This document shows, piece by piece, positions 26,773 through 62,740 of a stretch of 64,000 bases of DNA. The stretch is from Psammoneis japonica (Eukaryota), in contig QPGO01000050.1 of the NCBI GenBank assembly GCA_008632985.1, positions 248,001-312,000 of the forward strand. Reading direction: 5' to 3'. The translations under genes were made by a program, and so were the position numbers. How positions within the stretch are numbered: the first letter of the stretch is position 1; each line of letters starts with the position of its first letter. Under the pieces are notes generated by a model. That model had not been told where the DNA came from and searched no databases. It was given only the letters and a program-made list of their open reading frames with translations.

Positions 26773-26817
<45 letters not shown>

Positions 26818-26818
26818 N
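26773..26818. other. Poly-C run plus N: probable scaffold gap at the gene-rich/repeat junction
   Basis: A long C homopolymer ends in n, and base composition changes abruptly right after it. Confidence 0.75.
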
Positions 26819-27829
26819 AACAAACAATGCAGTCGAACACCAAAAATCATTCAATTCATCCCAGTCTCTCAACACAAATGCAAACAAGCATGATTGGTTT
26901 GGTGTGGGCACCCTCTTTTTGATTGGCAGGGAGATCATGGGAAGAAAAAACCAACTGGGCCCTGCTGTGGTTGTTCCTGGGCAGAGAAAAGAGTTGCTTG
27001 CTCTCTCATGCCATTGCTTGTGCCACAAAAGTGCACTGCTAAAAAACAACAACAGTTGGTCAATTTCATGTCAGCAACACAAAAACAAAACAGTGTGGGT
27101 GGTTTGGTTGGGTGACATCCAATGGCTGATGACAGCAAAACTGGCCATCACAAGTTGAAAGTCTCCAGAGCATCGCAAGAATCTGTCAGACATGTGGGAT
27201 GTCAAGCACCTCCCTCACATGTGTGGTGCCCTGTGAGTGCAACCCAGTGGGTGACAGCATGTCAACACTGACTGCAAACTGTTTTTGTTTGTGCCACAAG
27301 GAGGGCTTGAGCAGAGGAGAAAAAGTGGTGCCAAGTTTTGGAGAAACACCAGACTGGGTTGGGGCGAACAGCCGCCACACCCACCACACCAAGCAGAGTG
27401 TAAAAACACAGAGCAGCAGAAAAGTGGTGTGTGTGTGACAGCCGTGATGGTGAAGCTGGCAGCTTGTGATTGGATCGTGTGCTTGAGACAACATGCAGCG
27501 CAAAATGATGGGCTGCTCTCCTGGAGCACATTGTGTGGTGTGTCTGTGTCGCTGTGGCAGTTGCACAAGAAAACAACAGCAGCTATCTGCACATTTGGTC
27601 TGGTGCATGATGAGATCCAATGTTGCCATTGTCAAGCCCCATGTTTGATTTTCAGATCATGGGAGAACAGCTGCAGCAGGGCGAGGTGTTGGAGAAAAAG
27701 AGCAGGGGAGGAATGTGTCATGCTGGCGGTGGTGGCTCAAGCAAAACAACAAGAGCACACCAAGTGCCAAAAACATCAAATCATGCAACAGGGGTTGAGC
27801 GGTGCACTTCTCCATCCAAGCACAACACA

Positions 27830-30809: not shown

Positions 30810-33800
30810 GCGCCTGTGCTTTTTGTTTTTTTTGTTTGCGCGCATTCAATCGTACGTGCGTTGTGCGTACATCGAACGTTGGCGATGATGATGATTCAAA
30901 AAACCTCGAGCGAGCGAGCCAGCGCGATCCAAGAAACTTTTTCCTTCCTTGCTTTCCCTTGGTCAATTGGCCAACCTCGCTCAACGACATGTCAATACAC
31001 ATCAAACATACACCGGTTCGTACAAGTGCACAAAACACAACATGAACATCGACACGATTCTTTATTGCGTTCATTGCGTTCTTGCCTATCTCCTGCCCTG
31101 TTCTTCATTCTGAATTCGATGTATTTTGTAGAATCCTCATGATGCGACTTGCTTTACAAGTTACAAGTGTGATAAAAATGTCTCTATGCAGTATTGATTT
31201 GTTTCCTGATCGGTATTTAGCAGCGGATGTACCCGTATGTATCACAAATGAAACGCTCGAAAAATGGTAAGGCAACGATGTTATATATCTTGTTTGTCAT
31301 GGGCATCTTACACTATTTGCTTTGTTTGTATTTTGTATATATGTTATTGCTTGCATGTTCATATGCTTTGAGACGTGCTGCTTGCTTCGATTTACATTTC
31401 ATTGCTGCTCGAACCGTTTGTTCTTTGAATATGGTGAGTATGCAACACACAATGAATCACGAGGACAACAAATACATTTTGTGCACCTAACAAGTACTCT
31501 TTTTTCTCTTTTGCAGACAATCAATGATGATGGTCCAAGTCTATCCTCCAAGAACGCCGCTCTGATTGAAGCGTTGCGCGTGTTAAAGAATTTGACAATC
31601 TTTCCCATCTGTGCATTTGGATCTACAAAGAAAGGCCGCCGAACGACTCGTACCTTATCAATCTAGCGTTGTCGTCATAAGTCAATACTTTGTGGTGTCG
31701 AGGTGCCAGCGAGTTACAGGAACTTCAAAAGCACCCCAAGACGCACGTCCTCAAGACTCAAGACACACCTCTACATGCCCATGAAATTCAAGTTCTAGTG
31801 CAAAACAACAATGTACGGAGTAACATCATGTTGTGGATGTCGAGATGATGCCGACAAAAAACCGGTAGTACGAGGACAGACTGTCCGTGACTGAGCTGGC
31901 GGGATTGATGACTAGAAAAAGATCCACGAAATTGGCGCGCCGGAATTCTCTCGGTCATCAATCTCAAAATCGACGAAAAGAAGAGGAGTGTCTCATCGAG
32001 CGCTGCTTTGTTTTTTGACTGCTCTTTGTTAGGTAAGCATTTATCTCCATTCATATCAATGTCTTGTGTGGTTTATACTTTGAATATGATTTTCTCTTAT
32101 CGTGTGTGGTTTGTCGTCGCGCCGATCGTTTGAACACAAGAGTCGACTCCATCGGCACACGAGGTGCGTCGGACGTCAAGTGACTCGTCGCGACAGTATC
32201 ATACCAACAGCCTTATCCCAAGGTGAGTATTGAATCGATACAATGCTATTCTTCAATCTCCTCTTTATATAAAATGTATTGCTCATTGATTGTTTTGTTC
32301 CGTGTTGATTGTTGGTTCGATATCGTTCAGAGTTTCGGAAACGATCGTATTGCAATACAACACGCACGCTACACTCGGCTCGGCATTGGTGTCGGTATAC
32401 CAATCGCTATCATTCGACACGGTGAGAACTCAATCACATTATTATTCATACTGAATTCTTCTTTTGTTTTTGATTTACTTCTAACCATTCGTCGTTTGTT
32501 GTTGTGAATGCCGAATGATTCGCACGTGATTCTCACAGGAGCTAAATATATCGCATCACGATGCCTCCCAAGCAGCAAATACCCATGGCCAAAGGACAAA
32601 GGACACTTGGTGCCTTTTTTAGTCCCCGTGCCAAAGCCAACAGAACGACTACCACGACCGCCAAGACCCCAGCCAATGCGCAACCAAAACGAAAAGCGGC
32701 AGAAACGCCTGCAGGCAGGAAGGCCAAGGCACCCAAAATTACTGAATTGTCCACTGCGCCAATCAGTAGTTTCTTTCAGTCTCCACCACCTGCTCGTACC
32801 GGTACTCTCAAGACGCCTTCTACTATTGTTGCCGACTGTCGTCCTGCTAGCGACGAATCCTCAACCAAGAATGCCGATACTACCGGTACCAAGTCCAACA
32901 ACGATGCTGATTCATCTACCAGCCCATCTGACTCCATTATTGCTACAAATGGACTGTCATTGGAAACAACTTTGAAAGAAGCAACCGCGAATAGTAGCAA
33001 TGCCAACAGTTGTGAGGACGACGAATCGTATATTCCAGAAGAGCTTGACCCGCCGCAACAAAAGGAGGATGATGCTGAAGACGACGATCGTGTTGATCTG
33101 ACTCAAAGTGCCAAGGACCATTATCGTAAATATTTCATCATGCCCATCACTGGCGAAGAAAATGCACGCCGTATTGCTTTGCCATACCAACGAGAGGCGG
33201 TAAAGATCTTGATTCGTGAGAATGCTTTTATGGACGTAAAGGGCGACTTAGCTGGAATTCTGGTCAAGAAGCCACTTGCTGGAACTTGCATTGTTTATGC
33301 TGAAGTCAATGAATCGCCTTGTGTTGTGTTTCGAGAACCCGGCAACGGCATGGAGGTGGAGGTGCGCAAAGTGGGAATGACGAGTAACGGCAAGCGTCGA
33401 GAAGCCGACCGACTCCGCCAAGGGAAGATCAGCAGTACGGACCAGTTATCAAGCTTGTAGACATTGCTAACCTCCCCCCTCATGTTGAGAAAGAGATACT
33501 GAAAGCTGCTGTAATGCCTTGCTTGAAGGACCTGTCGACGGATCCAAGCTTGCACCCATTCCAACGGCATTTTTTCTCGGGGATTCTCGAACGCGGCGCG
33601 GATGTTTTGGGCTTCCTGGGACAGTTCATGTACCAAACTATCGAGTCGGGATTGCAAGACTATTATGGCGTTGGGGGTCCTTGCGAGTATCTAATGTTTT
33701 CTCCTGCCATTGTTGATCGGTATTTTGCTGAAGCCGAGATGCATGCGAGAGAGATTTTGGACGACATGGATTGCATTGTCAAGGCCATGGCACATGCTGG

Positions 33801-35300
33801 CTCGGCTCCCAGAATTCATGGAATGGGCTCATGGAACACTGGTAGCCAAGCCAAATTCTCGAGCAAGATGGTCACTCTCCAAAGCATTGTTGGTCAAGAG
33901 AACAGCTTGTCGGACACCTTACCTGAACCAGTCTACCCGAACGCCAAGGGTGCTGATCAGGTATTTTCTCAAGACTACAAAGAAAGAGAAAAGGCAGAAG
34001 GGCGTGCATTTTTGGTAAAGTTTTTGACTGAGTGGTTGAGAGAGCAGGAGACGCCCGGTGTGGTTGTTCTGGACACAAACAAAGTGCTGTATCAAAACCT
34101 GGATGGACTCTTGGACATGCTATCAGCTCAACGCTTTGTGACGATTCGAAGTGTGCTTGACGGCGAGGCAACGGTTAAGCTATACAAGGATGCACCGCAT
34201 GGGGTTCTGGTCAACAAACCGTTGTGCTACGCCAGTGACAGCCGCCAAACTACCCCGCTGGAGTACAAGGCACGCCGCGCATTGACAGCTGCCATTCTCA
34301 CCAACGTTTGCCGTGGCCTCAAGGGACAGGCTTTCCTCTCTGTCAAGGACCGTTTCGAAAATCCAATTTATGCTGCCATTGCATTCCAGATTGGCACCAT
34401 TGGCTGTCATCAGAACCTTCGCCTTTGCAGCGCCTTTTTCCGTGACTTTGAAACGCCCGAAGACCAGTTTCCCTTGAAAGACAATGGACTCGGCAAGTGC
34501 ATTCCTGGTGGACCGTTGGTGCTGAGGAACCGGAAGAAGACTCATCCAAATCGCCAAGAAGAAATTGCCAACGCAGTCCGCAGAGTGGACGCAGACTTTA
34601 TCACCAATGCACGGTCCATCATTTGCCAAGCTAAGAGTGGGGAAGAACGACAGCTTTGTGAGAGCTTGTATGAACTCTGCAAGCAGGGAAATGGCGCAGA
34701 TCCAGATTCAAAGAGCAAGAAGTTTCTTATGTACATTCCCGATGAAATCGTACCCGGTTCGGAGTTCTTGCGCACGATGAAGGACCACTGGGAACAAGTC
34801 AGAGAAAACACGGGGAATCCAAATGCAAGGGGTTGTACAAAGGTAGAGCTCCACTACAAAGCCAGCCAGTTGGCAGAAATCATTGAAGATTGCAAGCCGA
34901 GAGAGGGGAAGCGAGGAATTCCGTTTTGGGTGAAGGAGACCATGAACTCTGTCGAACCTCCGACACCCTCCAAATCCAACTGCCCATTCCACAACTTTGG
35001 GGCTGACTCGGTAAAGTGTGAAGGCCACGTGCACAGCTCGTTTCGGGGTCCGACCAAGGAACTGCTTGTGTGCAAGGATGGTCATCAATGCAAAGTCAAA
35101 CGCATCATGACGAGGAGCAACAAGTCGATCGGAGTGAAAGCTGCCATGCCAGGAAAGGAGCCACACTTGCTTGTTGAGCTGGTGGTTGATTGAACCTTGT
35201 GAATGCAAACAAGGTGCTGCAGCACAGTGGGGTGTTGCAGACTCTGCTGTAGAGAAGCAGTCTAGCCACTGGACCGTGCTCGGAGTGGGACTAGACAGCA
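30810..35300 (+). mobile_element. Unclassified ~4.4-kb repeat family, copy A (largely unmutated)
   Basis: Collinear homology with 42697-46872 + 53700-54030 and 58340-62740. Shared marker gagcgagc..gatccaagaaactttttccttccttgctttcccttggtcaa. Ends are approximate. Confidence 0.75.
32561..35193 (+). CDS. Repeat-encoded hypothetical protein (~880 aa once a 1-bp deletion at ~33446 is repaired) with an N-terminal PIP box
   Basis: ORFs 32561-33460 and 33514-35193. Paralog C reads through the junction (DQFVKLVDIANLP). QRTLGAFF at residues 13-20. Confidence 0.7.
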
Positions 35301-35324
35301 CTCTAGAGTGGACACATGTCTTTT

Positions 35325-35630
35325 TGTTTGTCATGGGCATCTTACACTGTTTGCTTTGTTTGCATTTTGCACACATGTTGTCACTTGCATCTTGCATGTT
35401 GACATGCTTTGAGACGTGCTGCTTGCTTCAATTTACATTTCATTGCTGGTCGAACCGTTTGTTCTTTGAGTGTGGTGAGCATGCAACACACAATGAATCA
35501 CGAGGACGACAAACACATTTTGTGCACCTGACAAGTGCTCTTTTTTCTCTTTTGCAGACAATCAATGATGATGGTCCAAGTCCATCCTCCAAGAACGCCG
35601 CTCTGATTGAAGCGTTGCGCGTGTTAAAGA
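35325..35630 (+). repeat. TpA-mutated partial duplicate of 31291-31589
   Basis: Near-identical to 31291-31589, differing mostly at TpA sites. Confidence 0.9.
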
Positions 35631-36530
35631 TTTTTTTGTTTTGGGCGGTTGTGCTTTATTGAGTTTTTTGTGCTCATCGTACGCACGTGGTGTGTGCGCT
35701 GGCGATGCAAGATTCTGCTCTCACCACAAAAGACATTCTGCTCTCACCACAACGTAGAAACGTGCCGAGCTCCATCGTAGAAAAAATGCACTCTTTGCCG
35801 AAACGGAATCTCGATCGACCTCTTCGACGCAGCCGACGCAAAAAACACTCTTGAGGTCTCTTGTCGACCATGTGCTTCTTGGAGTTTGTGAAGTGGAGTT
35901 GCTTTTTTTCACGTGGATTGCAGCCCGGAGTGGGCGCAAGGCGGAGCATTTGTTGATGCCGGTGGCAGTGTGGAGTGCAGCCCGGAGTGGGCGAAAGGCG
36001 GAGTTCTTGTTGATGCAGACATCTGTGTGTTCCACTTGCTGTGTCGTTTTCATCACACTTCTGTCGCAGCTGTTGCAGCAACCATGTCATTTGATTTTTC
36101 CCTTGTTGGAAATGATGGTTGGTGCAATGCCGCACTTCGCGATCACGATGATGTCAACGGGAGAAGCAACGAGGCTCACAACGTCAACGAAACAGCTGTC
36201 AACCTTGCCGCATCAAGCTCCTCAGAAAGTGGCGGCAACGATGGAGAGCATGCAAATGATGCCGTCGCCTCGGCAGTTGTGGGTCAACTCAAGGACTCTC
36301 GTGATTGTGCACCCAACTCTGGCGTGACTGTCGACCTTGCCGCGTCAAGCTCCTCAGAAAGTGATGGTGACGATGGACGGCACATGAACAACAGCGTTGA
36401 CTTGGCATTTGTGGGTCAACCAAAGGACCCCAGTGATCATGCGCCCGACTCTGGCGTGGCATCCAAAGCAGGCAAGGACAGTGTTGTTGTCTGAGGCTTC
36501 AGCAAGACACCTGTTGCTCACAATTGTTCC

Positions 36531-37361
36531 TTGTTTGTCTTGTTTCATTGTGTTGCAGCAGCTGCTGTTTCACTGCCGGCACCCCAAGATGCCCCTTCTG
36601 ATGGCCATGACCACACCAGAGATTGGTCCCCGTTGTGGTCTGCTCCGTCGCCCGACTTGGCAACGCAGCATTCGAAAAAGCCTTCTGATGCCAAAAAACA
36701 AATCATCGAATTGTGGAACGCCCCGGATGGATTCAAGTTCCTTGTCAACTCGAAGGCAGTCATAAAACGCTGGGACTGTGCAGACCATGGATGCCCGGTG
36801 CAGGTAAAGACCAAGCGCTCCGGCTCAAAACTTGTCAAAGAGCAACGAGGACCACACAACCACCCCCCACCCAGAGGGTTGTCTGCGAGCGCGAGGAACA
36901 CGCGTGCCCCAGCACACAAATGGGCGGTCAATGCGGAGCTCTCGGACTGCCTTTTGCGGCATGTGAACAATGTGGAACGAAAGATTCTCGACAAGTGTGA
37001 GGTGGAAGATCCGGTGGCACTGGATCAAAAGTTGCGTCCAGTGAAAGCATTGCGCACCACTGCCCCTCATGTCAGGAATGCAAGTGCATGCTCAAACACC
37101 ATTTGCCACCTTCTCCCAACAGAGTCTGGTGGTTGTTGCCTTCCTTCTTGCGTCAGGCCAATTGTCAAATGTCCAGGTGTCACGATCCATTCTCCAAAGA
37201 AGTTTGCCGTGGTGAAGGAGAGTGCCAATGTGACAGCAGCAGCATTGCGCCACTGCCGTGCGGCGCGGGATGCTGCAACACCAAAGGTGTCAGCAAATGG
37301 ACTGCCCAGCTCTTGGTGGAGTGCAAGCGTCAGAAAGACAAAGATGTTTGTGAATCTCTGA
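36531..37361 (+). pseudogene. MULE internal ORF with WRKY/FLYWCH-like Zn finger, TpA-mutated
   Basis: KRWDCADHGC...GPHNHPPP (W-x-C-x4-C...H-x-H). Confidence 0.55.
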
Positions 37362-37616
37362 TTTTCGGACTGCAGTGTTCTCTGTTGTGGCAGCAAGAAG
37401 TGACGTGATGCAATTGTTGATCACACGCCGCACAACAACCCGTGCATCTTCTGTCATCCGCTGGTGGCTCGCACAATTTCGAAACGTGTTTGACAAGATC
37501 CGTTGCGGGGGACTGCGACATGCGTGACCACGCTGTCGATTTCGATCCGTGCGCCAGATGACCAACTGTGCATGCTCACCAAGATCTGTTGATCACAATT
37601 CGCGCTGCAGACAAAG

Positions 37617-39800
37617 ATGAGCGATGTGAATGACAGAGATGACAAGCCGCCACCTGACCTGGAAGGGTGGAGAATGGTGAATTGCATGTCATCACCCACC
37701 TCTAAATCCGGTGGAGAAATCTCGGATGACAAGGAACGTCTCATTGAAGAGCTCAAGGCAGCAGAGAATGATGGGCTGTGCGGAAAACATCATGGGCAGC
37801 ACAAAGACAGACTCTGTTTGTCCATTTGTCAGTCTGGACAATGCCGCGTCGAGGCTGGGATGCAATGCTTTCCAGGGAAACTGGGCACACATTTGAAACA
37901 AGGCCAATGTCACAAGAACCATGACCAGACTCCCGAGCGTGGCCTGAAGAAACCAGCACTTCATCATGTCCGAGACAACTTGCACAAGAATCGGAGTGAC
38001 ATTCTTTGCGACTTGAAGGACAAGGGAATGAACAACAAGTCATGGCCCGATGACAGAATGAAGAAAGCCATCTCAAATGCAATGAGCGCTGAAGGAAACA
38101 AAGCAGCCAATGAAAACGGTGCATTCCAAAACCTTGATGATGTGAAGTGGCTCCTCAATTGTCACAGCAAATCCATTGATGAGTTTCTTGAAGGAAGCAA
38201 AGCAACCACGCAGTCTGTTGCAGGCTTGATCCCGGCATCGAGAAAAGACCCTCTTCAGAAAATTGTGGTTCTGCGCCATGACACAGATGGTGAAATGGGC
38301 CCCCAAGATTGGTCGCAGATTGTTGCGACATTTCAAAGTGCACAAAGAGCTCTTCAGAGTGCAGAACAGCTCTGGGGCACGGGGAAAGTGCAGCTGGAGA
38401 TTGACCACGCAAAAGGGTTCTGGAAAGGAGACCTTCGGCAGCTTGGCATGGTGGGCCTTGGCGACGCTGACAGAAAGTTCTTTCCAATCATTGTCAGCAT
38501 GCAAAATGCCGAGGACAGTGACGGAAGTGCCAGCACTCTGATTCGTTCTGCTGAGATGGCATCAAAGAGTTCCGGCATGCCACGCACGTGCCTGAAAGAT
38601 GGCTCGCTGGCACTTGCCAATGGCACCAATCAAGTGCAGCTGTCTGGCAACGACTGCTTTGCTCACATGATGCGAGCGCCTTTCACAAGAGGAGGTGGCT
38701 TCCGTGGATCCAGAGGATCATTCTCTCGGCACATGCTCAAGCAAGGATGTGCCATGTCAGACGTGTTCGGCATCCTTTCCCACTGTTTTGCGTTCTCCCA
38801 TCTCACGTCATTGTCCGACTGGGTCACAGCAAGGAAGCCATTCAAGGCGGAAAATGCAGACCTTCCAGACCATTTTTACGAACAGCACCTGCCAGCATTT
38901 CCCAGGTTTGGATCTGCTTGTCACGAACCAGGAGAGGCACAATCGGGGCAAGGGCTGGAATGAACTTGGGGTCATCTTAGACATTCGAAGCGACATTGTG
39001 ACGTCAAGAACAAGACGGGCGACCTAGAGTCAACATTGGAAGCTGTCTCTGGGTGCGAGGAAAACCATTCAGAAGAAACATTTGCCACAAAGACAACGAT
39101 TCCCAAAGCGGGTTGGGACGTTGTAGCTGAGCACTGCTGCACAGAGACAGGCGTTGATTTCAAAAGCTGCAGCTGCTGCTCTTCAAGCACTGGCAAGCCC
39201 CTGATGCGCCAAGAAGCAATTGGAAAAGCGGCTGCAGTTGGCGGACATGTTGTGCACATTCCAAATTGTGCCTTCTGCATGGAGTGGAGAGACAAGGCGG
39301 TGAGGAAGGTTGTTGGCACAAACGAAACAAAAGGTGGACTCACCATGGAGCAAATCTTGCTCCAACAGAAGCTCGTGAAGGATCGAACATGTGTCTCCAA
39401 CCGACCCACACGTGTCAAGTCAGCATTCATGACTGTCCTTGGCAACCACCTTGAAAAGAATGCTCCAACGCCCCTCGAAGGGGAAGACTGCCGTTCATGC
39501 CTTCTGCGAAGGTCGCAGCGCAGCATCTCTGCTGGAGATGTTGCGCCGCGTGGGAAGAAGAAAACCAACAAAAAGAGAAAGAAGGGTGGTGCCAAGAGCA
39601 GCCACGAACAAGAATTGGAAATGAAGAAGTGGGAAACAGACGTCGCAGCGGAGTTCAAAAGAAACTTACAACAACAGTTGCCAAAGGATGCAAGCAAGGA
39701 TGTGGAAGCAGATTCGGATGCTCGTGCACTGCGCTGTGCTGGACATAAAACCGCTTGGACTGCCACGACTGTGTCTCCAGTACAAATTGTACGTGGGTAA
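37617..39800 (+). pseudogene. MULE DDE transposase, inactivated
   Basis: LEID..., FFPII..E, CLKDGSLAL, the CxxH signature NDCFAH and QSGQGLE followed by TGA (probably from CGA). Only one Tyr in 448 aa. Confidence 0.8.
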
Positions 39801-42696: not shown

Positions 42697-45600
42697 ACTT
42701 TTTACTTCCTTCCTTTCCCTTTGGTCAATTGGCCAATGCGTGCACAGCACACATCAAACATGCGCCGGTGCAAGAACACAAAACACAACATGAACATCAT
42801 GCATGTGGATGAGTCTCTGCACGGTTCGTCATTGCGCTCATTTTGTTCGTTGCGTTCATTGCGTTCTTCATTCTGAATTCGACATGTTTGGCAGAATCCT
42901 CATGATGTGGCACACTTTGCAAGTTGCAAGCGACAATGTTTTGGAGCTGCTGTCTGCTGTCTCTCTGCAGCATTGATTTGTTTCCTGATCGGCATTTTGC
43001 AGCACAAGTGCCGGCATGCATCACAAATGAAACGCTCGAAAAATGGTGAGGCAACGACGCCGCTGCACATCTTTTTGTTTGTCATGGGCATCTCGCGCCA
43101 TTGCTTTTTGTTTGCATTTTGCACACACGCCATTGCTTGCACGTTGATGTGATTTGAGGCACACTGCTTGCTTCGATTGACACTTCATGGTGAGCATGCA
43201 ACTTGAGTGAATCGCGAGGATGACGAATGAATTTTGTGCATCTGACAACCACCAAGCACACTTTTTTCTCTTTTGCAGACAATCAATGACACTGGTCCAA
43301 GTCTGTCCTCCAAGAACGGCACTGCAATTGAAGCGCTGCACATGTTGAAGATTTTGACAATCTTTTCCACAAAGGCAGTGTCCGATTTTTTGTTGCTTGT
43401 TGCACTCGGATCTACAGTGAAAGGCCGCCGAACGACTCGCACCTTGTCAATCTAGGGTTGTCATCACAGGTCAACACTTTGTGGTGACGAGTGTCAGCAA
43501 GTTGCAGGAAGTTCAAAAGCACCTCAAGACACACTGCAGGTGCCTCAAGACTCACCTCCACATGCCCTGCTTCTGTGGCAGAGTTTTAGAGATTCGGGCA
43601 CCACCCGGCTCACACACGGGTGTTGCTGATTTTTGCATTCACTTCATTTGTTTGGGCTTTGCGATGCGCTCGGCTGTCTTGACACGAACAACTGCAGTGA
43701 CAATGTGACATCATGATGTCATGCAGTGGGTGACGAGATGAGAACGCAGTTGTGGCATGCCAATGAAAAGCCGGCAGTGCGAGGACAGACAATCCGTGAC
43801 TGAGCAGGCGGGATTGATGGCTGGAAAAAGATCCGCGAAATTGGCGTGCCGGAATTCTCCGGTCATCAATCTCAAAATCGACGAAAAGAAGGCTGGTGTC
43901 TCATTGAGAGCTGCTTTGTTTCATGACTGCTCTTTGCAAGGTGAGCCTTCATCTCTGTTTGTGTCAATTTCTTGTGCCGTTCACACTCTGATTGTGGTTC
44001 TCACTTGTCATGTGTGGTTTGTCGTCGGGCCGATCGTTTGAATGCAAGAGTCGACTCCATCAGCACACGAGGTGCGTCGGACGTCAAGTGGCTCGTCGCG
44101 GCAGCATCACACCAACAGGGTTGTCCCAAGGTGAGCATTGAATCAACACAATCCCATTCGTCAACTTCCTCTTTATAAAATCATGCATTGCTCATTGACT
44201 GTTTTGCTCCGTGTTGATTGTTGAGTTGATGTCATTCAGTGTGTCGGAAATGACAGCATTGCAATGCAACGTGCACCCCACACTCGGCTCGGCATTGGTG
44301 GCAGCACACCAATTGCTGTCATTCAACATGGTGAGTGCTCAACCACGTTGTTTTTCACATTGAGCTCTTCTTTTGTTTTTGATTTACTTCCAACCATTTG
44401 TCATTTGCAGTTGTGGCCAAAGGATTCGCACATGCTTCGCACTGGAGCCAAATGCATCGCATCACGATGCCCAAACAGTGCAAGCCCCTGGCCAAAGGCT
44501 GAAGGAGGACTGTTGGTGCCTTTTTAAGTCCCTGTGCAAAGGCCAGTGCAGCAGCTGGCATCAGAAGCAAGTTGAGAACTGCTGCCAGGACTCCTGCCAT
44601 TGTGCTGCCAGTGAAGCCAAAGGCAGCTGAGACACCCACCAGAGAGAAGTCCAAAATGCCCAAATTGACTGAGCAATCCACTCTGCCAATCGGGAGCTTT
44701 TTCCAGAGTCCACCACCTGCTCCTGCACTGCTCAAGACACCCTCTGCTGTCATTGCCGACCATCGTCCTGCCGGCGACGAATCATCCTCCACAAAGAACG
44801 CTGATGCCACCAGCGCACATGTTGCCACCAAGTCCAACTGTGAGACTGAAACAGCTCCCAGCTAATTTGACTCCATCATTGCTGCAAATGGATTGTCATT
44901 GGAAGCAACTTTGAAAGAAGCCACCACAAACAGCAGCAATGCCAACATTTGCAAGGATGATGAATCGTTCATTCCAGAAAAGCTTGATCCACCGGAGAAG
45001 GAGGAGGAGAATGCAGAAAAAGATGACAGCTCTGTCGAACCTTTGCCTCAAACCACCAAGGACCATTTTCTCAAAAAAAATCACCGTGCCCATTGCTGGC
45101 GAAAAAAATGCACGCCGCATTGCCTTGCCATGCCAACAAAAGGCGGCCCAGATCTTGATTCGTGAGAATGCTTTTGTGGGCGCAAAGGGTGACCTGGCTG
45201 GCATTCTGGTCAAGAAGCCACTTTCTCAAAGCTGCGCTGTGTGTGCTGAAGTCAATGAATTGCCTTCCATTGTCTTTGCAGAACCACAAAATGGAGGGGG
45301 GGGGTGCACAAAGTGGGAATGACGAGTGATGGCCAACGTCAAGAAGCCGACCAACTCCAGCAAGGAAATGTCAGCAGTGCGCGGACCAGTTTGTCAAGCT
45401 TGCAGACGTTGCCAACCTCCCCCCTCATGTTGAGAAAGAGATGCCCAAAGGTGCTGCAGTGCCTTGCTTGAAGGACCTGTTGACGGATCCAAGCTCACAC
45501 CCATTCCAACGGCATTTTTTCTTGGGTGTTCTTGAATGCGGCGCTGATGTTTTAGGTTTCTTGGGACAGCTCATGTTTCAGACTGTTGAAGCAAGATTGC

Positions 45601-47173
45601 AAGACTGTTGTGGCGTTGGGGGTCTGTGCAAGCACCTGATGTTTTCTTGTGCTGTTGTCAATCGGCATTTTGCTGAAGCCAAGAAGCACACAAGGGAGAT
45701 TTTGGATGACATGGACTGCATTGTCAAGGCCTTGGCAGACACTGACTTGGTTCCCAGAATTCATGGAATGGGCTCATGGAACACTGGCAGCAAAGCAAAA
45801 TTCTCAAGCAAGATGGTCACTCTCCAAAGCATTGTTGGTCAAGAGAACAGCTTGTCAGACACCTTGCCTGGACCAGTCCACCAGAATGCCAAGGGTGCTG
45901 ATCAGGTGTTTTCTCAAAAACACAAGGAAAAGAAAAGGCAGAAGGGCATGCATTTTTGGCAAAGTTTTTGACTGGGTGGTTGAGAGAGCAAGAGACGCCC
46001 GGTCTGGTTGTTCTGGACGCAAACAAAGTGCTGCACCAAAACCTGGATCAACTCTTGGATGTTCTTTTGGCGCAAGGCTTTGTGACAATTCGAAGTGTGC
46101 TTGATGGCAAGATGATGGTTGAGCCACACAAGGATGCACCGCATGGGGTTCTCATCAACAAACCGTTGTGCTGCGCCAGTGACAGCCGCAAAACTGCCCT
46201 GCTGGAGCACAAGACATGCCGCGGATTGACAGCTGCTGTGCTGACCAATGTTTGCCGCGGCCTCAAGGGACAGCCGCGTTCCTCTCCGTCAAAAACCATT
46301 GCGAAAATCCAATTTGTGTGGCGCTGGCATTCCAGGTCGGCACCATTGGCTGTCATCAAAACCCTCGCCTTTGCAGCACCTTTTTCCGTGACTTTGCAAC
46401 ACCCAAAGATCAGTTTCTGCTGAAAGACAATGGACTTGGCAAGAGCATTCGTGATGGACCATTGGTGGTGAGGAACCAGAAAAAGACTCATCCAAATCGC
46501 CAAGAAGAAATTGCCAATGCAGCCTGCAGAGTGGGCGCAGACTTTGTCGCCAATGCTCAGTCCATGATTTGCAAAGCTCATTGTGGGGAAGAATGGCAGC
46601 TTTGTGAGAGCTTGTGTGAACTTTGCAAGGAGGGAAATGGCAAAAAGGCAGACTCAAAGGGTGAGACGTTTTTGATGTGCACTCATGATGAAATCGTGCC
46701 CAGCTCGCGCTGGGGAAGCAACAGACAGAACTCAGGGAACCCAAATGCAAGGGGTTGCACAAAGGCAGAGCTCCGCTGCAAAGCCAGCCAGTTGGCAGAA
46801 ATCATTGAACATTGCAAGCCCAGAGAGGGGAAGTGCGGCATTCCGTTTTGGGTGAAGGAGACTGTGCACTCTCATCAGAGTGCACGAAATGTCAAAAATG
46901 TGCAGATTTACATGATGACAATTTTTTTGTCGAAATGTTGCAAAAAATTGTTGTCATGTGATGACAGGCCAACCTCTGGTTGCAAGTTTGGTGTGCCAAC
47001 ATTGCAGCAACTTGTTGAGAATTGTGCACGCTGTTTTTCACCACATCCACATCGCTGTTTCTGCCTCCACCTTGTTGCCATGTGCCAAAGCATGATTGCA
47101 TTGCCACACAATCCTTGGTTTGTTGATTTTTGTTAAGATCATTTTAAACAAGAAAAGCATTTCGTCGGTCAAG

Positions 47174-51558: not shown

Positions 51559-52640
51559 TCATTTCCGAGCATTTTTCGTAATGGATGGAACTGCATTGCC
51601 GATTTCTTTCTTCTTGCACTGAGTGGCAAAGTCACGAAGCCTGGCTTTCCACATGGCCTCAAAACGATCCCTTGTGGCCTTGCTTTTGCCAGAATCATCA
51701 GCGGCAGAAACCACACGATCAATTTTCACACATCTTAAAAGAGTCTCATTGACATGTGTTGCACGCATTTGTTCTCGCTTGACATCGAGCATCACTGGTC
51801 GCATGGGCTTTTCCCAAGAATTTTTGTGTTGGTGGAACAACGACTTTACGAATTCAGGGAAGGACATGGGGCACTCGTCTTTGGTCGTCTCACAGTGACC
51901 AAGAGCCAGGAAATTCTCCAAAAAGTCAATGCAAGTCAATGTCTTGTCACATTCGCCGAACAGGGAGCAAAGCCAATGATTGCAATCACCACTCCTTTCA
52001 GGTGCGTGTGGCAGAATCTTGTCACAAAGAATCAAAAAACCAATGTGAAGGCATTGTGCGTGACGCAAAACCTTCCCTTCAAAACTTCTCAGCTCAATGT
52101 GCTTGACAAGTGGCTCTCCCTTTGGGTCACACAATCTGGGATCATGGAGAAGCTTGCACAACATGGAAATCTTTGCCATCATGTTGGTTGCAATGTCTGT
52201 TGATTTTGCCTTGTCGCCGACGACTTTCACATCCTCTGCTTTGGGAGCACGGCGACACTCCAACGCATGAGGATGTTTGGTGCCTTGACTGGAACAACTC
52301 CATCCTTTTGCGGAAAGAAAGTGCAGCAAGCTCTTGTGCCCAAGTGCCTTTGCAACAATGTGGTTCACAGCCATCAGTTCTGCAAAAAAATGAGGTCTGC
52401 CCTTCGACTTTTGCCACACACAGGCAAGCGCGATCCAATTCGGAGAGGGATCACAAGTGGAATCGCGGTGGAGCTGAACCTTGGATTTCACCATCTCGAT
52501 TGTTGCTTTGACACGGCTCCGCTCGTTGCAGTTGATCACTCCAAAACCATTGGCAAAGAGAGATTCAAGTGCGGCCTCCTCGAGGCAGGAACCATTGTTG
52601 TCTTGCGACAGAGAGGCAACCGACAGGTCACGCGGCGCCA
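51559..52640 (-). pseudogene. Degenerate ORF inside the Plavaka element
   Basis: Long Tyr-free, Cys/His-rich ORF lying between the TIRs. Confidence 0.35.
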
Positions 52641-54389
52641 TGGTTGCTGTTCCAACACCAAAAAATCTGGTTTCTGCAGAAACACACCAGAGTGGTGCGT
52701 GGGAGAAGTTGCACACGTGCCTGGTGGGATTTGGAGTTTTAAACACAAAAACCCGCGTGACTTCTCCCAGGGAAATCCTGCGTGAGATTGTGCCGGGAAA
52801 GGGCAATGCGGAGTGCAGAATTGATGGAAGAAAACATTGTGCAAAACAGCATCAGGAGAAAGGGTGCATGTGCTGGAAAACAACATGGATTTCTGCATGC
52901 ACGTTAAGGTGCGTGAAGAACACGTGGGTGCCTTCAAGTGACGCATGCGAACAATCACAAAGAAACACTCGGAAATGGAGACAGCATGGAGAGAAGTCAG
53001 AAACATGGATCCAAAACAAAGTGACACACAACAGAAAAAAATGCAACAACAACAAGAGACGATGAAGGCAACGGCGACGGGATCGATGAAAAAGAAGGAT
53101 TCGGATGGAAAGACACCAGAGACGGTGAAAACAGGCGGCGCCAAGATGAAGAAGGAAGAGAAAAATGGGACAGACAAAATGAAGAAAGAGAAAAAGAAGC
53201 CAACGACACGACGTCAAGAGGGGAGCAGCGACGCGATTCTGCACTTCGAGGGACCTCTTCCTCTTGATGATGTTCACCCAAATGCAAGAAATGCAGTGTG
53301 GCTTTTTTGGAACGGTGACGAGGAAACATCCAACGTGGCAGCGGCACATTTGAAATTCTTGCAAGAGAGCAGACAAGACATGTGGAATGAAGAGGACGAC
53401 ACGGACGACCAGGCAAATTGGAGCACAGTCATTGATCAAACAATTGGTGCACACTTTGCATGATGAAAATTTCATTGCATGCAACTGCAATGTTTGGCTT
53501 GTCGTTAAAGATCGTCAGTTGTTGTGAAAAAGGCAGAGCACAAAAATTAAAAACGAATCTGTGTTCAAACATGAAGAATGGCAGGAGATTGACAATTGAC
53601 CAAATGACAAAAACCGTCATGTGCAGACAAGTGGATTTTGTGATGTGGCAATGTGTTTTTGTCATGCGTGCAGATGTTACGATGTCCTGCACTCTGATGC
53701 AGTCAAACCTCCGACACCCTCCAAATCCAACTGCCCACTCCACACCTTTGGGGCTGACTTGGCAAAGCATGAAGGCCATGCATGTTGCTCATTTCAGGAC
53801 ATGGACAAGAAGCCACTGGTGTGCGAGGATGGCCATCAACACAAAGTCCAGCGCATCACAATGAGGAGCAACAAGTTGATTGGAGTGAAAGCAGCCACAC
53901 CCGGAAAGAAGCCTCACTTGCTTGTTGAGCTGGTGGTTGATTGAACCTCGTGAATGCAAGCAAGGCACTGTGGTGCAGTGGGGTGTTGCAGAATCCAATG
54001 TGGAGGCAGAGAAGCAGACTGCAAACAGCACCAGCAGAGGAACATTTGCGTGGCTCTGCTCCGCTGGAGAAAAATGTGGCAGACTGAAGGCAGTGCTGTT
54101 GCATCACCCAATGAGCACTCGTCTGCCATCCTTTGTGTGGAGTCTGGCATTTGACTGCTGGCATTGCAGCAGCATTTTCCAAGCTGATCCTTTGCCAACT
54201 CTCTTTCTCTCTGCTCTGCCCTGCTGCAGATGTTTGGATGTGGACGGCTGCACTTTTTGTCTTTTTTTGTGCCCATCCCCGGCAGCTCATCAAACAGTGT
54301 GGGCAAAGCTGTGTGACAACAACATTCAAGCAAACGGTCATTCCTTGAGCAAATCTCCATTGGGTTGCTTGCCACTTTGCAAGCCACAC

Positions 54390-57300
54390 AAGGGAAGTTT
54401 GTGAGCTGTGTGATGCAGCTTTTCATTGCTTGCCCTTGTGCAGCTTGTGACTTCATGAGCTGCACAAGAGAAGTTTGCAATCTGTGCAAGGCATTGTTTT
54501 GCACACTGCATGATGACATTCAATCAATCACTTGACATGAGTCATTGTTCAACACAATGAAACAGACCACATGACGGCAGCAACAGCTGATGCTAGATTG
54601 TGCCGCCAAACCTTTTCCCGCCAACAACAACAACACATCACATGCCACATTTTGCGCTGACAAGCATGTCCATGAAAAGAGAGGTAAGATGAAGTCCAAA
54701 AAAATGGGCAAAACTCCTTCTGTGCTTTTCTTGCTGTTGTTCATGCTTGAATCTCACAACTTCAACAGCTGATGCCACTTTGCTGCCAAACTTTTCCTGC
54801 CATCAATGCCAATGCATGACACGCTTCATCACACTTGGAAAAGCACACATGAGAAAAGAGAGGTGAGAGAAAATCCAGAATGGACAAAGACACTCATTCT
54901 GAGATTTTGCTGTGAGACATTCACTGGACTCTTTTCTCACAACTGTCGCATTTCAATTTGTTCATTCTCAACAGGTTGAAGAGTGCAGAAACCATTGTGC
55001 AGATGATCAAGACTCTTTGCAGTGCCAAGTGTTGGGAAGCATTTGTCAGGCTGGCAAGCACAGCAGAGTGAGGCAGACTGGAGGGAGTGACAACGATGAG
55101 GAGGAGCAAGCAAAAGGGGATCAGGGATGACCAAAGGGTGTGGAATGCCACTCAAGACATCGTCAATGGCACAGCAGAGGGAAATGAGTCTGCCATCTAA
55201 ATGGACATGAGAACAAATTGTCCAGGAATTTTTCCCAATTGAAGTGATGCAAAATGGAAGCAACAAGCTCACGACCACCAGCTGTGCATCAATGAAACTT
55301 GAGCACAAGACTGACCCTGTCAAATGGCCCTGTCTGCTGCACAGACAGCAACCTGAAGAATCTGCACTTGCTGAAAAAATCATTGCAGGAACAGCCAACA
55401 TTGTGACAGACAGCTTGTTCAACAAAACTGCAGCAATGGCAGATGTGATGCTGTTGCCATCAGAAGGTCACTCACACCAATGTCACAGTGTCAATCATGC
55501 TCCAGGCAGGGAAAGTGATCAGAGTGCTTGTCGTGGGGAGCTGGGAGGCATCTGTTGGATTTTCCACAAATTCACTCTCTCTTGCACTTGACACGCAGCA
55601 TCTCACATGGCAGAGTCATCCTGGGCTGTGATTGCCACCTGGCACTGCAAAAACCTTCTACAAAATTGCAGCATTTTGGATGGGTGCATCAAAGAAGAAT
55701 TTGGGAATTTGGCAACCGCCCCCCAGCACCTCCAACCACCATCTGGCATGGTGGCTCACCAGACCAGAAGCAGCCCTGGCAGAAGACCAGGACTGCAAAA
55801 GACATCAGCCAAAAGCAACGTCAGTGGCAAGAACAGTCATTGCTGCATTTTTGATGTTGGTTGGGAATCCAAGATGATTTTCAGTTGTGCAGGAGTGTTT
55901 CTGCCCACAAAGCTGCAAATGCTGGGTTGCACTTGTTTTGCATTGCATGTGTGCTCTGACCCTGTTCATGGTTGCGGATTAAATGGCATGTCAGGCATTG
56001 TTGAAAGCTTGGCATGGGCAGCAGTCAGGAAGGGCTGTGCAAATTTCAGGATTGAATTGAGTTGAGTTGTTGTCGTGCAATTGTTCCAACACTTTAACAT
56101 CCGGGTCACAATGTTGCAAGCTGCGCAAGGAAGTTTGCAAGCAGCACAACGCGACTTTTCATTGCTCACCCTTGTGCAGCTTGTGACTTTGTGAGCTGCA
56201 TGAGGGAAGTTCACAAGCTGCACAAGGCATCGTTTTGTGCACTGCATGACAACATTCGATCAATTGCTTGACATGAGTCATTGTCCACAATGGCAAATTC
56301 GTGCGCACGACTCCCAGACATCGCTCACTCAAAACAACACAATGAAACAGACCACATGTCAGCAGCAACAGCCGATGCTAGATTGTGCCACCAAGCCTTT
56401 TCCTGCCACCATCAACAACACATTGCATGCCACATTTTGCTCTGACAAGCATGTCCATGAAAAGAGAGGCAAGATGAAGTCCAAAAATGGACAAAACTCC
56501 TTCTGTGATTTTCTTGCTGTTGTTCATGCTCGAATCTCACAACTTCAACAGCTGGTGCCACTTTGCTGCCAAAACAATGCCAATGCATGACATGACGCGT
56601 TCCAGGTCTGGGTGGGACCTCACACTGCTGAGCTGTGACATCGACAGTTTTTTGAATCATGTCGCATGTCGCGCACGTAGATTTTGTGATTTTTTTGACA
56701 TTTTGTGTCATTTTGCGGCACCCTTGTTGAGCGATCCGTCCAACAACTTTTGACATTTTTTGTTGCAGCGCAATTCTGTGATGTCTTAAGAATCACGTGG
56801 GGCAGGTGCATTTGCAAAAACGCAGAGTGGCAAGAGGCACAATTGCACCACAAACTTGGCTGTCTGTTTGATGTTGAAGACAAACACATTCATCAATTAA
56901 ATTCTCATGCTGCGGAGCTTGCATGCAGAATTCTGCGGGCCCAATGTCACACGGAGTCCCACCCAGGGCTGGAATGCGTCACATCATGCTTCAACACATT
57001 TGGAAAAGCACACATGAGAAAAGAGAGGTGAGAGAAAATCCAAAATGGACAAACACACTCATTCTGAGATTTTGCTGCAAGACATTCACTGGACTCTTTT
57101 CTCACAACTGTTGCACTTCGATTTGTTCATTCTCAACAGGTTGAATGGTGCAGAAACCATTGTGCAGATGATCAAGACTCTTTGCAGTGCCAAGTGTTGG
57201 GAAGCATTGGTCAGGCTGGCAAGCACAGCAGAGTGAGGCAGACTGGAGGGAGCGACAACAATGAGGAGGAGCAAGCAAAAGGGGATCAGGGACGACTCAA

Positions 57301-58339: not shown

Positions 58340-61300
58340 AAAAATGGTGCGTGCGCTGGTGATTCAAAATTGTTGAACCATCCACGCAGTCGAGCGAGCG
58401 AGCGCAATCCAAGAAACTTTTTCCTTCCTTGCTTTCCCTTGGTCAACTGGCCAACCTCAACATGTCAATGCAGTGCACAACAAACATGCACCGGTGCAAG
58501 TGCACAAAACACAACACAAACATCGACGCGATTCATTGTTGCTTGCATTGAGTTCTTGCCTTTCTCCTGGCCCATTCGTTGCTCTAAATTCAACACATTT
58601 GGTGGAATCCTCATGGCGCGACATGCTTTGCAAGTTGCAAGTGACAGCACTGTCTCCATGCAGTGTTGATTTGTTTCATGATCAGCAATTGGCAGCGGAA
58701 GTGCCAGCATGCATCACAAATGAAACACTCAAAAAATGGCAAGGCAACAATGCCACATGTCTTTTTGTTTGTCATGGGCATCATGCATTGGATGAAATTC
58801 AACATGCAGAGGGGAGACATCACACGTCGTGCATTGTGCCTCATTGACTGCAAAATGGCCACTGTGTCATCGCCAGTGACAAGAAAAGCTGCGTTGCACA
58901 ACAATGTCGACGAACGGCACTGATCAGAGTGGTGCCTTAATTTCTGTGTCTTGCTGTGCCATTGGATCTGCAGAGAAAGGCCGCCAAACAACTCACACCT
59001 TGTCAATCTGGGGTTGTCATCATGGGTCTGTCATTTGTGGGGGGTGATGAGGTGCCAGCGAGTTGCAGAAACTTGAGACGCGCCTCATGACATGCCGGCA
59101 CCCCAAGATGCACCATCATTCAACATCGAGCTTCTTGTTTCAGTTGAGTGGCCACTGGGTGGTCCATTCAAAGATGCACCTTAAGACACCGGCAGACAGT
59201 TGTCAGAATGGACATGCAACAGCAACAGGTGTGGTGCACTCACCTGTCAGTTTCTGTGACCATGACTCACACAAGACCCAGATCATGTGGCAACATTCAT
59301 GACAAATGTTGGCAATCATGCAACTTTTTTCTGGTGCATTTTCCCTTCACTTCTTTTGCAACATGCAACAAGACGAGACCTGTCACAGTGCTCTTGTTGT
59401 TGCCCTTGCTGTTGGTGAGATTTGTCTTTTGACCTGTTCAATGCATTGTCTCATTCTGTTGTCAATGTCATGCTCACTCACATTGACTTTTGTTGTTGTT
59501 TGCTGTGGATTCATGCCAAAGCCAGGCCAAGAGAACATGATGTGAAACGCTTTGCTCTGCTTGGCATTGGCTGTGCTCAATGTCACAACAATTCAATGTG
59601 GCAAGCTGTGCTGTTGATGAGATTGCTCTGCTTGTGTCGTTTGCATTTTGGGTGTGATTCTCATTTCTTGCATGTGGTTTGTCATCATGCTGATCATTTG
59701 AGCGCAAGAGTCAACTCCGCCAGCACATGAGGTGCATCAGACATCAAGTGACTTGTCGCAACAGTGTCATGCCAACAGCGTCATCCCAAAGGTGAGTTTT
59801 GAATTGACACAATGCTGTTCTTCAATTTTCTCTTTACAAAACATTGCATTGCTCATTGACTGTTTTGTTCCGTGTTGATTGTTGGTTCGATGTTGTTCAG
59901 CATGTCAGAAACAACAGCATTGCACAATGCAATGCACACGCTGCGCTCGGCTTGGCATTGGTGGCAGTGCACCAATTGCCATCATTCAACATGGTGAGCA
60001 CTCAATCATGTCATTGTTCACATTGGGTTCTTCTTTTGTGTCTGATTTGCTTCTGACCATTCATCGTTTGCTGTTGTGATGCCAAAGGACATTCACGCCG
60101 CAGCCAAATGTGTCGCATCACGATGCCCAAATGGCACAAGCCCCTGGCCAAAGGACAAAGGACTGTTGGTGCCTTTTTTGGCCCCTCTTCCATGGCTGAT
60201 GCGGCAGCTGGCATTTCAAGCAAGTTTGACCCTTCAACCACCAGGGGAGCAAATCTCCGCCCGCTCCACTTGAGGATGTGTGACGTGTCATGCACTTTTA
60301 CAACAACACAGTGAACATGGCATTAAAATGTCATGTCATGCACAATCTGCACAAAGCACACCACGTGCACTTGCTTGTTGGGAGCAAATCTCCACCGGCG
60401 GAGATTTGCTCCCAGGGTGTGGCATTTGTGACAACCTCCATTGTTGAAGGTTGAGATTTAGCTCCTCTTTGTTCACAGATGAAGCTTGCAAAAAAAAAAA
60501 ATGGGTGTTGAAAGGCAACATTGAACTTTCTAAATTGCAAAAAGGGTGCCTCCAGATTTTCGGCAAATGTGCGCTCCAGAACAAAATTGCGTGAATGAAA
60601 TGTTGTGCACATCTGAAATTACTTCATTTGCTGTGTTTGTGACACAAGCAAGCAAATCTCCACCCGTGGAGATTTGCTCAAGTCCAGTGGTTGAAGGGTT
60701 GAGACGACTGCCAGGATGACTCCTGCCATTTTGCTGCCGCTGAAGTGAAAAGCAGCTGATGCACCGGCAGCCAGAAAAAAGTCCAAAATGCCCAGATTGA
60801 CGGAGCAATCCACACTGCCTGTCGGAAGTTTTTTCCAGAGTCCACCACCCGCTTCTGCTCCCAAGACACCCTCTGCTGTTGTTGCCGACTGTCACCCTGC
60901 CGGCACCAGTGTTGCAACTTTGCCAGATGAGCCCACAACCAAGAATGCCGACTCCACCGGTGCCAAGTCCAACTGTGAAACTGAGCCAGCTTCCAGTCCA
61001 TCTGACTCTCCATCATTGCTGCATGTGGATTGTCATTGGAAGCAACTCTGAAAGAAGCCAATGCAAGTGGCAGCAATGTGCCAACATCATCATGGAAGAT
61101 GACGAATTGTGTGTTCCAGAAGAGCTTGACCCGCCGGAGAAGGAGGCAGAGGTCAAAGGCAATGGTGGTTCTGTTGAACCTTTGCCTCAAACTGCCAAGG
61201 ACCATTGTTGTAAAAAATTCATCATGCCCATCACTGGCAACAAAAATGCACGCCGCACTGCCTTGCCATGCCAATGAAAGGTGGCACAGATCTTGATTCA

Positions 61301-62740
61301 TGAGAATGTTTTTGTGGATGTAAAGGGCGACTTGGCTGGAATTCTGGTCAAGAAACCACTTGCTCAAAGCTGCATTGCATGTGCTGAAGTCAACGAATCG
61401 CCTTGCATTGTCTTTGCAGAACTTGGCAATGAAATGGAGGTGGAGGTGTGCAAAGTGGGAATGACAAGCCACGGTCAATGTCAAGAAGCAGACCGCAGCC
61501 GCCAAGGCAAGATCAGCAGTGCAGACCAGTTTGTCAAGCTTGTAGACATTGCCAACCTCCCCTCTCATGTTGAGAAAGAGACACTGAAAGCTGCTGCAAT
61601 GCCTTGCTTGAAGGACCTGTTGATGGATCCAAGCTCACACCCATTCCATCGGCATTTTTTCTTGGGCATTCTCAAATGCAGTGCGGATGTCCTGGGCATC
61701 TTGGGACAGTTCATGTTTCAGACCATTGAAGCGGGATTGCAAGACCATTGTGGCATTGGGGGTCCATGCGAGCAACTGGCGTTTTCTCGTGCAGTCATCA
61801 ATTGGCATTTTGCTGAAACTGAGAAGCCTGCAAGGGAGATTTTGAATGACCTGATTGCGGTTGTCAAGGCCTTGGCGGATGCTGGCTCAGCTCACAGAAC
61901 ATTTTTGCCATTTCGTCATGGAAGACTGGAAGCAAGGCAAAGCATTCTAGCATGGTTGGGACCACAAAGGGATGCATTGGTCGGGAGAACGTGTTTTTTG
62001 ATGCACTGCCAGATCCAGCCATTCTAAATGCAAAGGGAGCGGATCACTTTTTTTCCGAGGCTCACTCGTGGTTGGCAAAGTTAGATGGGAAAGCCTTGAT
62101 GACAAACAAGCTGAGCGAGGGATTGGCTGCTCAAGGAATGCCTGGGGTGGCTCTTCTTGACACAAACAAGACCACTTGTGGCACTCTTGATCTTCTGTGT
62201 GACATGCTTTCAGCACAAAAGGCTTTGCGACTGTTTGAAATTTGCTTGACGGTGATGTGATGGTTCTGCTGCACAAGGATGGGCCGCACGGGGTTCTTGT
62301 CAATTGACCCTTTAGCTGCGCTGATGACAGCCACCAAAGCACTCCATTGGAGCACAAGGCATGCCGCGCATCGACAGCTGCCATTCTAACCAACGTTTGC
62401 TGTGGCCTCAAGGGACAGGCGTTCCTCTCTGTGGAGGACACCCACAACCTTTCCTCCTTCTGTGGCCACCACAGTCTGCACGCAACTTGGCCTGCCATCT
62501 TGGTGCCAGCTTTGTGATGATTCGAAGTGGGCTTGATGGCGAGATGATGGTTGAGCTGTGCAAGGATGCACCGCGTGGGGTTCTCGTCAACAGACCGGTG
62601 TGCTGCGCTGGTGACAGCCGCCAAAGCACTCCATTGGAGCACAAGGCACGCCACACATTGACAGCTGCTGTGCCAACCAACGTTTGCCGCGGCCTCAAGG
62701 GAAAGGCACTCCTCTCTGTTGAGGAACATTTCGAAAATCG
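58340..62740 (+). mobile_element. Unclassified repeat family, copy C (TpA- and CpG-mutated, internally rearranged)
   Basis: Homologous to copy A (KGQRTVGAFF; QILIHENVFVDVKGDLAGILVKKPL). The 3' block is duplicated at ~62100-62430 and ~62510-62740. Confidence 0.85.
60230..60698. mobile_element. Non-autonomous piggyBac-type element, 469 bp
   Basis: Termini CCCTTCAACCAC / GTGGTTGAAGGG, flanked on both sides by TTGA (60226-60229, 60699-60702). Absent from copy B at ~44572. Internal gcaaatctcc..ggagatttgc hairpins. Confidence 0.8.

Follow-up and report, generated by a model that had tools for sequence, protein, structure and literature searches.

The 469-bp element at positions 60230–60698 (+) of the window, i.e., the complete 64,000-nucleotide stretch of the Psammoneis japonica genome analyzed here, very probably goes back to a non-autonomous piggyBac-like element that inserted at TTAA in a duplicated host gene, thereby duplicating the TTAA, and was later overtaken by a regional process acting on chromosomal DNA and turning TpA into TpG or CpA by A>G changes on one strand or the other. 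This conversion would span the element, both of its flanks and about 20 kb around, and might be initiated by deamination of adenine in DNA, with the product being read as G at replication. In the family to which the element belongs, the A>G changes concentrate at TpA, are found on both strands of each erased copy, arose after insertion and independently in each copy and flank, and have regional limits. Accordingly, the conclusion of the initial annotation that TA was ancestral and was changed after insertion, at the level of DNA rather than of an RNA intermediate, finds support in the family comparison and in the involvement of both strands, although two of the three arguments given for it fail, leaving it partly supported as it was reasoned.

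The window copy is a non-coding piggyBac-like MITE, as established by copy search and family comparison, and is shorter than most family copies (469 versus about 498 bp). It starts with CCC and ends with GGG, and inverted-repeat comparison places its terminal inverted repeats (TIRs) at 60230–60241 (+, CCCTTCAACCAC) and 60687–60698 (−), the right end reading GTGGTTGAAGGG up to 60698, followed by TTGA. The TIR is perfect over 13 bp in TA-rich copies and over 12 bp in the window (13-nt arms when one flank base is counted). A palindromic subterminal motif, GAGCAAATCTCCAC, is present three times, namely in the left subterminal repeat (60245–60264, +), where the palindrome is partly deleted in the window copy, in an internal palindromic copy (60379–60414) and in the right subterminal palindromic repeat (60651–60679). 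Non-autonomous piggyBac-like elements are described as having a TTAA duplication, a TIR of 12–19 bp starting with C, subterminal repeats and no coding capacity (PMC5381638). All of this is shared by the window family, with TTAA on both sides in five of the six TA-rich copies; unlike the described elements, CTAA and CCAA junctions occur in two of the eight window-family insertions having a TA-rich end. As to a cognate transposase, 16 PF13843 matches are found in the genome, and the TIR is absent from the 12 loci examined (about 10 kb each). Besides, three loci (L054, L059, and L052) show the same TIR with unrelated interiors and may represent another family or rearranged copies. The TIR letters reported initially, accacCAgg at the left and, in reverse complement, accacTGga at the right end, are correct. 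However, their reconciliation to an ancestral TA has to be abandoned, as CA occupies TIR positions 13–14 at the left end of all 35 full-length copies, and at the right end all six TA-rich copies show ACCAC-CG-G, with CG in these positions, so that the TG of the window (CA at 60685–60686, +) is a CpG transition from ancestral CG.

The element resides in copy C (59631–62739, +) of a tandemly duplicated host gene, near the start of the reading frame as inferred from paralogues. Copy C and copy B (43757–46872, +) are TA-erased, while copy A (31848–34950, +) is TA-rich and contains two open frames (304 and 601 aa). Neither frame matched Pfam, the 601-aa frame did not yield a usable hit in the Atlas, and no RNA dataset containing the stretch is listed. 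The TA-erased domain containing the element (42500–64000) is also low in CG, and TA observed/expected is 0.02–0.07 from 44 kb to the end, compared with 0.5–0.7 over the first 26 kb. From copy A to copy B, TA sites became CA in 41 and TG in 39 cases and were kept in 3, and in the duplicates L064 and L066 from elsewhere in the genome the corresponding values are 63 CA, 44 TG and 7 TA. This unannotated gene family (31848–34950 in the window as well as L061–L066 and L070) forms tandem clusters on several contigs, each with one TA-rich member (A, L064, partly L061) and erased neighbors. Two further sharply bounded TA-erased blocks lie at 26750–30500, here with tandem repeats of about 220 bp, and at 35250–39750. 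Run depths in the thousands to tens of thousands mark high-copy repeats at 52000–53600 and 56600–57000, and a frame at 14613–15476 (+) gives a short Herpes_UL52 match (E 3e-10), presumably a PrimPol-type zinc finger.

The empty site claimed for copy B (44572–44576, +) was initially read as TTGA. This tetramer is indeed present at 44572–44575 but is one base out of register with the duplication. When anchoring gap-free on the shared CAAG and reading copy C with the element removed, the aligned site is CAAG-T-TTGA-G in C and CAAG-T-TGAG-A in B, making TGAG at 44573–44576 the homologous tetramer, and copy A does not have the segment holding the insertion site. Five other paralogues (L062–L066, including the TA-rich L064) read CAAG/AAAG-T-TCAG-G and L061 reads CAAG-T-TCAA-G. 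Speaking against TTAA as the target, this tetramer is found at the site in none of the paralogues compared, which have TCAG or TCAA instead, so that its presence in the lineage of copy C would require a C>T change; a single C>T from the L061 state (TCAA) would suffice.

For the family comparison, the best 40 of 119 candidates from a DNA search were scored, giving 40 loci, 31 of them with both ends, and an exact left-end pattern (46 matches) contributed 19 additional loci, 11 having both ends within 700 bp, 3 being longer and 5 without right end. From 42 copies, three sharing flanks with another copy (L022, L033, and L036) and four short ones (L039, TCAA/TTGA; L040, TTGA/TTGA; L041, TCAA/TTAA; L045, TTGG/TCAA) were left out. 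The final set thus comprises 35 copies, 6 TA-rich (at least 25 TA) and 29 erased (at most 12 TA), with the majority state of the TA-rich copies as polarity reference; a query with a TA-rich copy yielded one extra TA-rich copy, L138, without ends. In the erased copies, A>G was found at a rate of 0.425 after T (733/1725) versus 0.03–0.04 after other bases (A, 92/2489; C, 62/1442; G, 38/1352). The next base matters as well, with rates of 0.68 at TAC (212/313), 0.56 at TAT (347/619), 0.24 at TAG (62/255) and 0.21 at TAA (112/538), and the bias persists with a stricter reference restricted to sites invariant in 6/6 TA-rich copies (TAY 186/312, TAR 93/430). TA survived at 62/109 YTAR sites versus 52/689 sites in other contexts. 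The 928 TA site-copies of the erased set now read TG and CA in equal numbers (378 each), TA in 118 and CG in 9 cases, and mean TA loss per copy is 87% (72–97%).

An alternative source of such a spectrum would be decay of 5-methylcytosine eliciting mismatch repair and, with it, an error-prone Y-family polymerase of the Pol eta type introducing A>G at WA. In line with this, Pol eta is known to mutate WA hotspots after mismatch excision (PMC7884765), Y-family polymerase domains are encoded at five loci in the genome, and losses of TA and CpG co-occur, albeit with a weak correlation (Spearman 0.37, p 0.048). However, WA also covers AA, and a preceding A (0.037) does not raise A>G above the level seen with a preceding C (0.043) or G (0.028). 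Moreover, the TA loss of 87% exceeds the CpG loss that should trigger it (mean 44%; C>T at 192/972 CpG), and in the mutated region of the alga Bigelowiella natans, 210 of 211 reported mutations are A>G/T>C, with almost no changes at G/C (Mettrop et al., bioRxiv 10.64898/2026.01.13.699255). Hence, a polymerase of this type is an unlikely cause of the conversion.

The erased copies were changed in place. Over 406 pairs of them, agreement in the choice between TG and CA has a mean of 0.599, identical to the permutation mean (P(max) 0.48), and no sign was found that erased copies derive from donors that were already erased. Transversion divergence averages 1.4% in erased versus 0.5% in TA-rich copies (p 0.007), yet TA loss has already reached 78–91% in four erased copies with at most two transversions, and L017 has lost 29 of 32 TA with 0 transversions in 466 sites. 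The only intermediates among full-length copies are L002 and L051, each erased at one end; in L002 (G000:C24:322220-322721; TTAA/TTAA) the left two thirds keep TA, and the right third and the right flank are erased. Few intermediates and high TA loss at few transversions are consistent with targeted regions becoming saturated rapidly. The values given for the B. natans region (211 mutations, 6,169 TpA, 3,132 generations; bioRxiv 10.64898/2026.01.13.699255) translate into a rate of about 1e-5 per TpA per generation, which would be enough for saturation before neutral change becomes visible. Same-strand runs, which a single-strand deaminase working processively might produce, did not show clear clustering in the erased copies (largest z 1.84 among five distance bins). 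TA transitions account for 3 of the 10 differences between the duplicates L030 and L033, a weak hint at ongoing hypermutation.

When a target site is duplicated on insertion, its two copies are at first identical, derived from the host and of known sequence, and so reveal, across the family, direction and timing of the changes without any outgroup. TTGA is confirmed on both sides of the window element, at 60226–60229 (+), where letters and family comparison indicate TTAA with A>G, and at 60699–60702 (+). In the six TA-rich copies, 11 of 12 ends read TTAA and one CTAA, whereas the 58 ends of the erased copies comprise 12 TTAA, 20 TCAA, 16 TTGA, 4 TTGG, 4 CCAA, 1 GTGA and 1 CCAC (TTAA at 11/12 versus 12/58, Fisher p 6e-6). 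When the census was widened to 123 distinct junctions, some of them collected with a pattern requiring TTAA and a few having other interiors, TTGA or TCAA stood at 0/14 junctions beside TA-rich, 6/15 beside intermediate and 53/94 beside erased interiors. With this, the copy comparison proposed initially has been carried out, and young copies in unmutated DNA with TTGA flanks, which were named as the contrary case, were looked for in this census and not seen. In 10 of the 29 erased copies, the two flanks are changed in opposite directions, which demands change after insertion under every model. The flanks of the family thus demonstrate that TpA erasure occurs in chromosomal DNA, after insertion and on both strands.

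These counts also bear on the possibility that the element inserted at a pre-existing TTGA in already erased DNA, due to relaxed target choice or a mutated tetramer carried over from the donor, and that only its interior was mutated later. Both window flanks are identical, and a TTGA pair taken alone is as compatible with a TTGA target as with one-strand editing, so that this locus's own flanks, initially regarded as an independent test of mutation direction, cannot serve as one. The short copy L040, left out of the set, is likewise TTGA/TTGA. Furthermore, L051 (CCAA/CCAA; TA-rich in its left interior and left flank) and L035 (TTAA/CTAA) have non-TTAA junctions adjoining unerased DNA, and strict use of TTAA can consequently not be assumed for any single locus. 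Doubly changed ends, all of the one-strand type (TTGG, CCAA, and CCAC), are overrepresented (9/58) compared to TAA sites inside elements (5/538, p 1e-4), and for piggyBac, 2.3% of integrations at non-TTAA sites, often CTAA (PMC3499692), as well as 4-nt overhangs carried from the donor (PMC7351741) have been reported. On the other hand, TTGA and TCAA are absent from all 14 junctions beside TA-rich interiors, although the DNA flanking TA-rich copies offers them more often than TTAA (165:39 for the two together). Identical flank pairs are not in excess (4/29 versus a permutation mean of 6.8), and for TTGA/TTGA, seen once, the frequencies of erased ends predict about 2.2 cases in 29 under independent decay alone. 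L011 is TTAA/TTAA, and 2 kb of its erased flank contain no further TTAA. The six independent full-length TA-rich insertions, with 0/6 at TTGA/TCAA, leave a share of up to about 39% by our own arithmetic; if the target is copied to both sides, the share of TTGA/TCAA insertions is at most 0.21, and if copied to one side only, the best fit is 0.62 with an upper bound of 0.95 from the erased pairs. Altogether, insertion at a pre-existing TTGA appears improbable, and the original target at the window locus was in all likelihood TTAA.

Among the altered ends, TTGG and CCAA are frequent and TCAG and CTGA are absent (L003, L007, L008, L020, L024, L029, L031, L042, L043, L118, and L120), and the former may represent CTAA/TTAG or CCAA targets. 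L051 (1000–2750; G000:C123:51743), in which the right part is erased, has CCAA on both sides and is probably a true non-canonical insertion with a domain edge inside the element. The terminal 47 and 53 bp of the element are devoid of TA and, as piggyBac excision is independent of TTAA flanks (PMC7351741), TpA erasure is unlikely to trap the element; flank mutation as a means of immobilization was dropped for the latter reason.

Concerning the chemistry of TpA conversion, the tRNA deaminase TadA acts on a U-A-C anticodon, and the strict 5′ T and 3′ pyrimidine bias resembles this substrate. Deamination of adenine in DNA by a TadA/ADAT-type enzyme is, hence, quite possibly the underlying reaction, such an enzyme being a candidate only. 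The genome gives nine PF00383 and four PF02137 matches. The PF00383 genes resemble dCMP deaminase, RibD, TadA (L089), ADAT2 (L092) and, in two cases, nucleoside deaminases, some of these labels being assigned by sequence reading, and adenosine-editase (PF02137) domains are found at two separate loci (L096 and L097). A chromatin domain was not detected in the deaminase and editase frames scanned. Judged by sequence, the deaminases look like members of housekeeping families and none is diagnostic; to our knowledge, TadA-like and ADAT2-like genes are near-universal. At L091 (313–1785, −), a single open frame encodes both a TadA-like deaminase domain and, fused with it, a DIOX_N/2OG-Fe(II) oxygenase. 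This fusion is of relevance for the idea that not adenine but the thymine of (R)TpA is modified in silenced DNA, e.g., by oxidation, and then mispairs with G. Oxidized thymine does mispair, and as TAY on one strand equals RTA on the other, the spectrum cannot separate A from T, rendering a thymine lesion formally equivalent with respect to all spectrum and flank counts. However, the oxygenase part of L091 belongs to the DIOX_N/2OG-FeII_Oxy type, which we take to act on small molecules, and a thymine lesion is considered rather doubtful.

In contrast, A-to-I editing of an RNA intermediate, with the element being carried in a retroposed host transcript, is hardly credible. The window flanks are changed in one direction, as such editing predicts, and the two adenosine-editase loci could provide the activity. 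Nevertheless, 23 of 26 scorable TA sites in the window copy are changed, 11 to TG and 12 to CA with 3 TA left, which excludes one-strand RNA editing, and each of the 29 erased copies shows at least 6 changes in each direction. The evidence against an RNA intermediate within the locus is, therefore, this mixed interior and not the flanks. In addition, TAG is disfavored here, though it is a hotspot context of ADAR2 (PMC10661471), and the erasure extends over 20 kb and several unrelated repeats. A sequencing or consensus artefact from miscalled modified bases can be dismissed with similar firmness since, although the assembly may have been built from the sole run holding the stretch (0.90 of sampled words), which would then not be independent, the erased sequence is reproduced at a depth of 57–69 by run contigs of 2,323 bp (1 difference), 1,166 bp (1 difference) and 302 bp (0 differences), the longest covering the right junction of the element including its TTGA, and the duplicate loci L020 and L022 share their TG/CA pattern (99.8% over 1,690 bp).

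The spared members of the gene clusters (copy A and L064) and the domain edges inside elements suggest regional rather than homology-based targeting. TpA conversion probably follows silenced, putatively CG-methylated chromatin instead of sequence homology; CpG loss goes along with TA loss here and, in other diatoms, CG methylation marks transposons (PMC9998398). The genome gives 27 matches to C5 methyltransferases (PF00145), with at least five full-length and several stop-containing ones among L124–L133. The TA-rich copies L011 and L035 have sharp edges inside erased DNA, indicating that erasure comes in episodes or sets in only some time after insertion.

With this diatom-like genome, a second lineage is added to a recently described process known from one preprint on a rhizarian alga; a report of TpA hypermutation in diatoms was not found in the literature searched, the coverage of which excludes most subscription papers. 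New constraints on the enzyme come from the TAY bias, the resistance of YTAR, the lack of any excess at AA and the domain edges located within elements, and these can be compared with the B. natans mutation list. CRISPR knockouts have been used in related diatoms (PMC9998398), i.e., genetic tools exist. In TA-erased genomes, flank-based classification of transposons and divergence dating are misleading. Tentatively, diatoms and chlorarachniophytes might share a genome defence in which a putative, TAY-preferring DNA adenine deaminase is aimed at silenced chromatin and brings transposons, their flanks and redundant tandem copies near saturation soon after these have been marked. If true, this shared system would be the A:T counterpart of repeat-induced point mutation (RIP) and a natural adenine base editor.

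Compared to known systems, ADAR-type editing, with one strand affected per copy and a UAG hotspot, differs from the present case by both strands being changed in 29/29 copies and by disfavored TAG. Like fungal RIP, the present process leaves repeats densely covered with transitions that depend on sequence context, affect both strands and arise after insertion. Its direction is opposite, however, in that RIP makes TpA from CpA, whereas TA is lost here and C>T at CA amounts to only 25/1337, and one tandem member is spared (copy A, L064), with edges inside elements. RIP has been linked to DNMT4/RID (PMC9998398). The WA>WG activity of Pol eta in somatic hypermutation (PMC7884765) has A>G at TA in DNA in common with our case, in which, however, AA does not show any excess. 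The closest match is B. natans, where TpA hypermutation of integrated viral DNA was measured de novo, being active in some lines only, and an ADAT-type (ADAT2-like) deaminase was proposed (Mettrop et al., bioRxiv 10.64898/2026.01.13.699255). In both cases, TpA is converted to TpG/CpA with either strand affected, and the transitions keep to TpA and to delimited stretches of foreign or mobile DNA, sparing the rest of the genome, though host duplicates are also changed here. The present case belongs to another lineage (diatom-like, the named relatives of the TruD encoded in the window being diatoms) and was read from fixed differences near saturation, in contrast to the de novo measurement. Its targets include a DNA-transposon MITE, host-derived flanks and tandem host-gene duplicates versus viral DNA in B. 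natans, and TAY>TAR bias and CpG co-decay were observed here, whereas trinucleotides, CpG, diatoms and piggyBac are not mentioned in the main text of the preprint.
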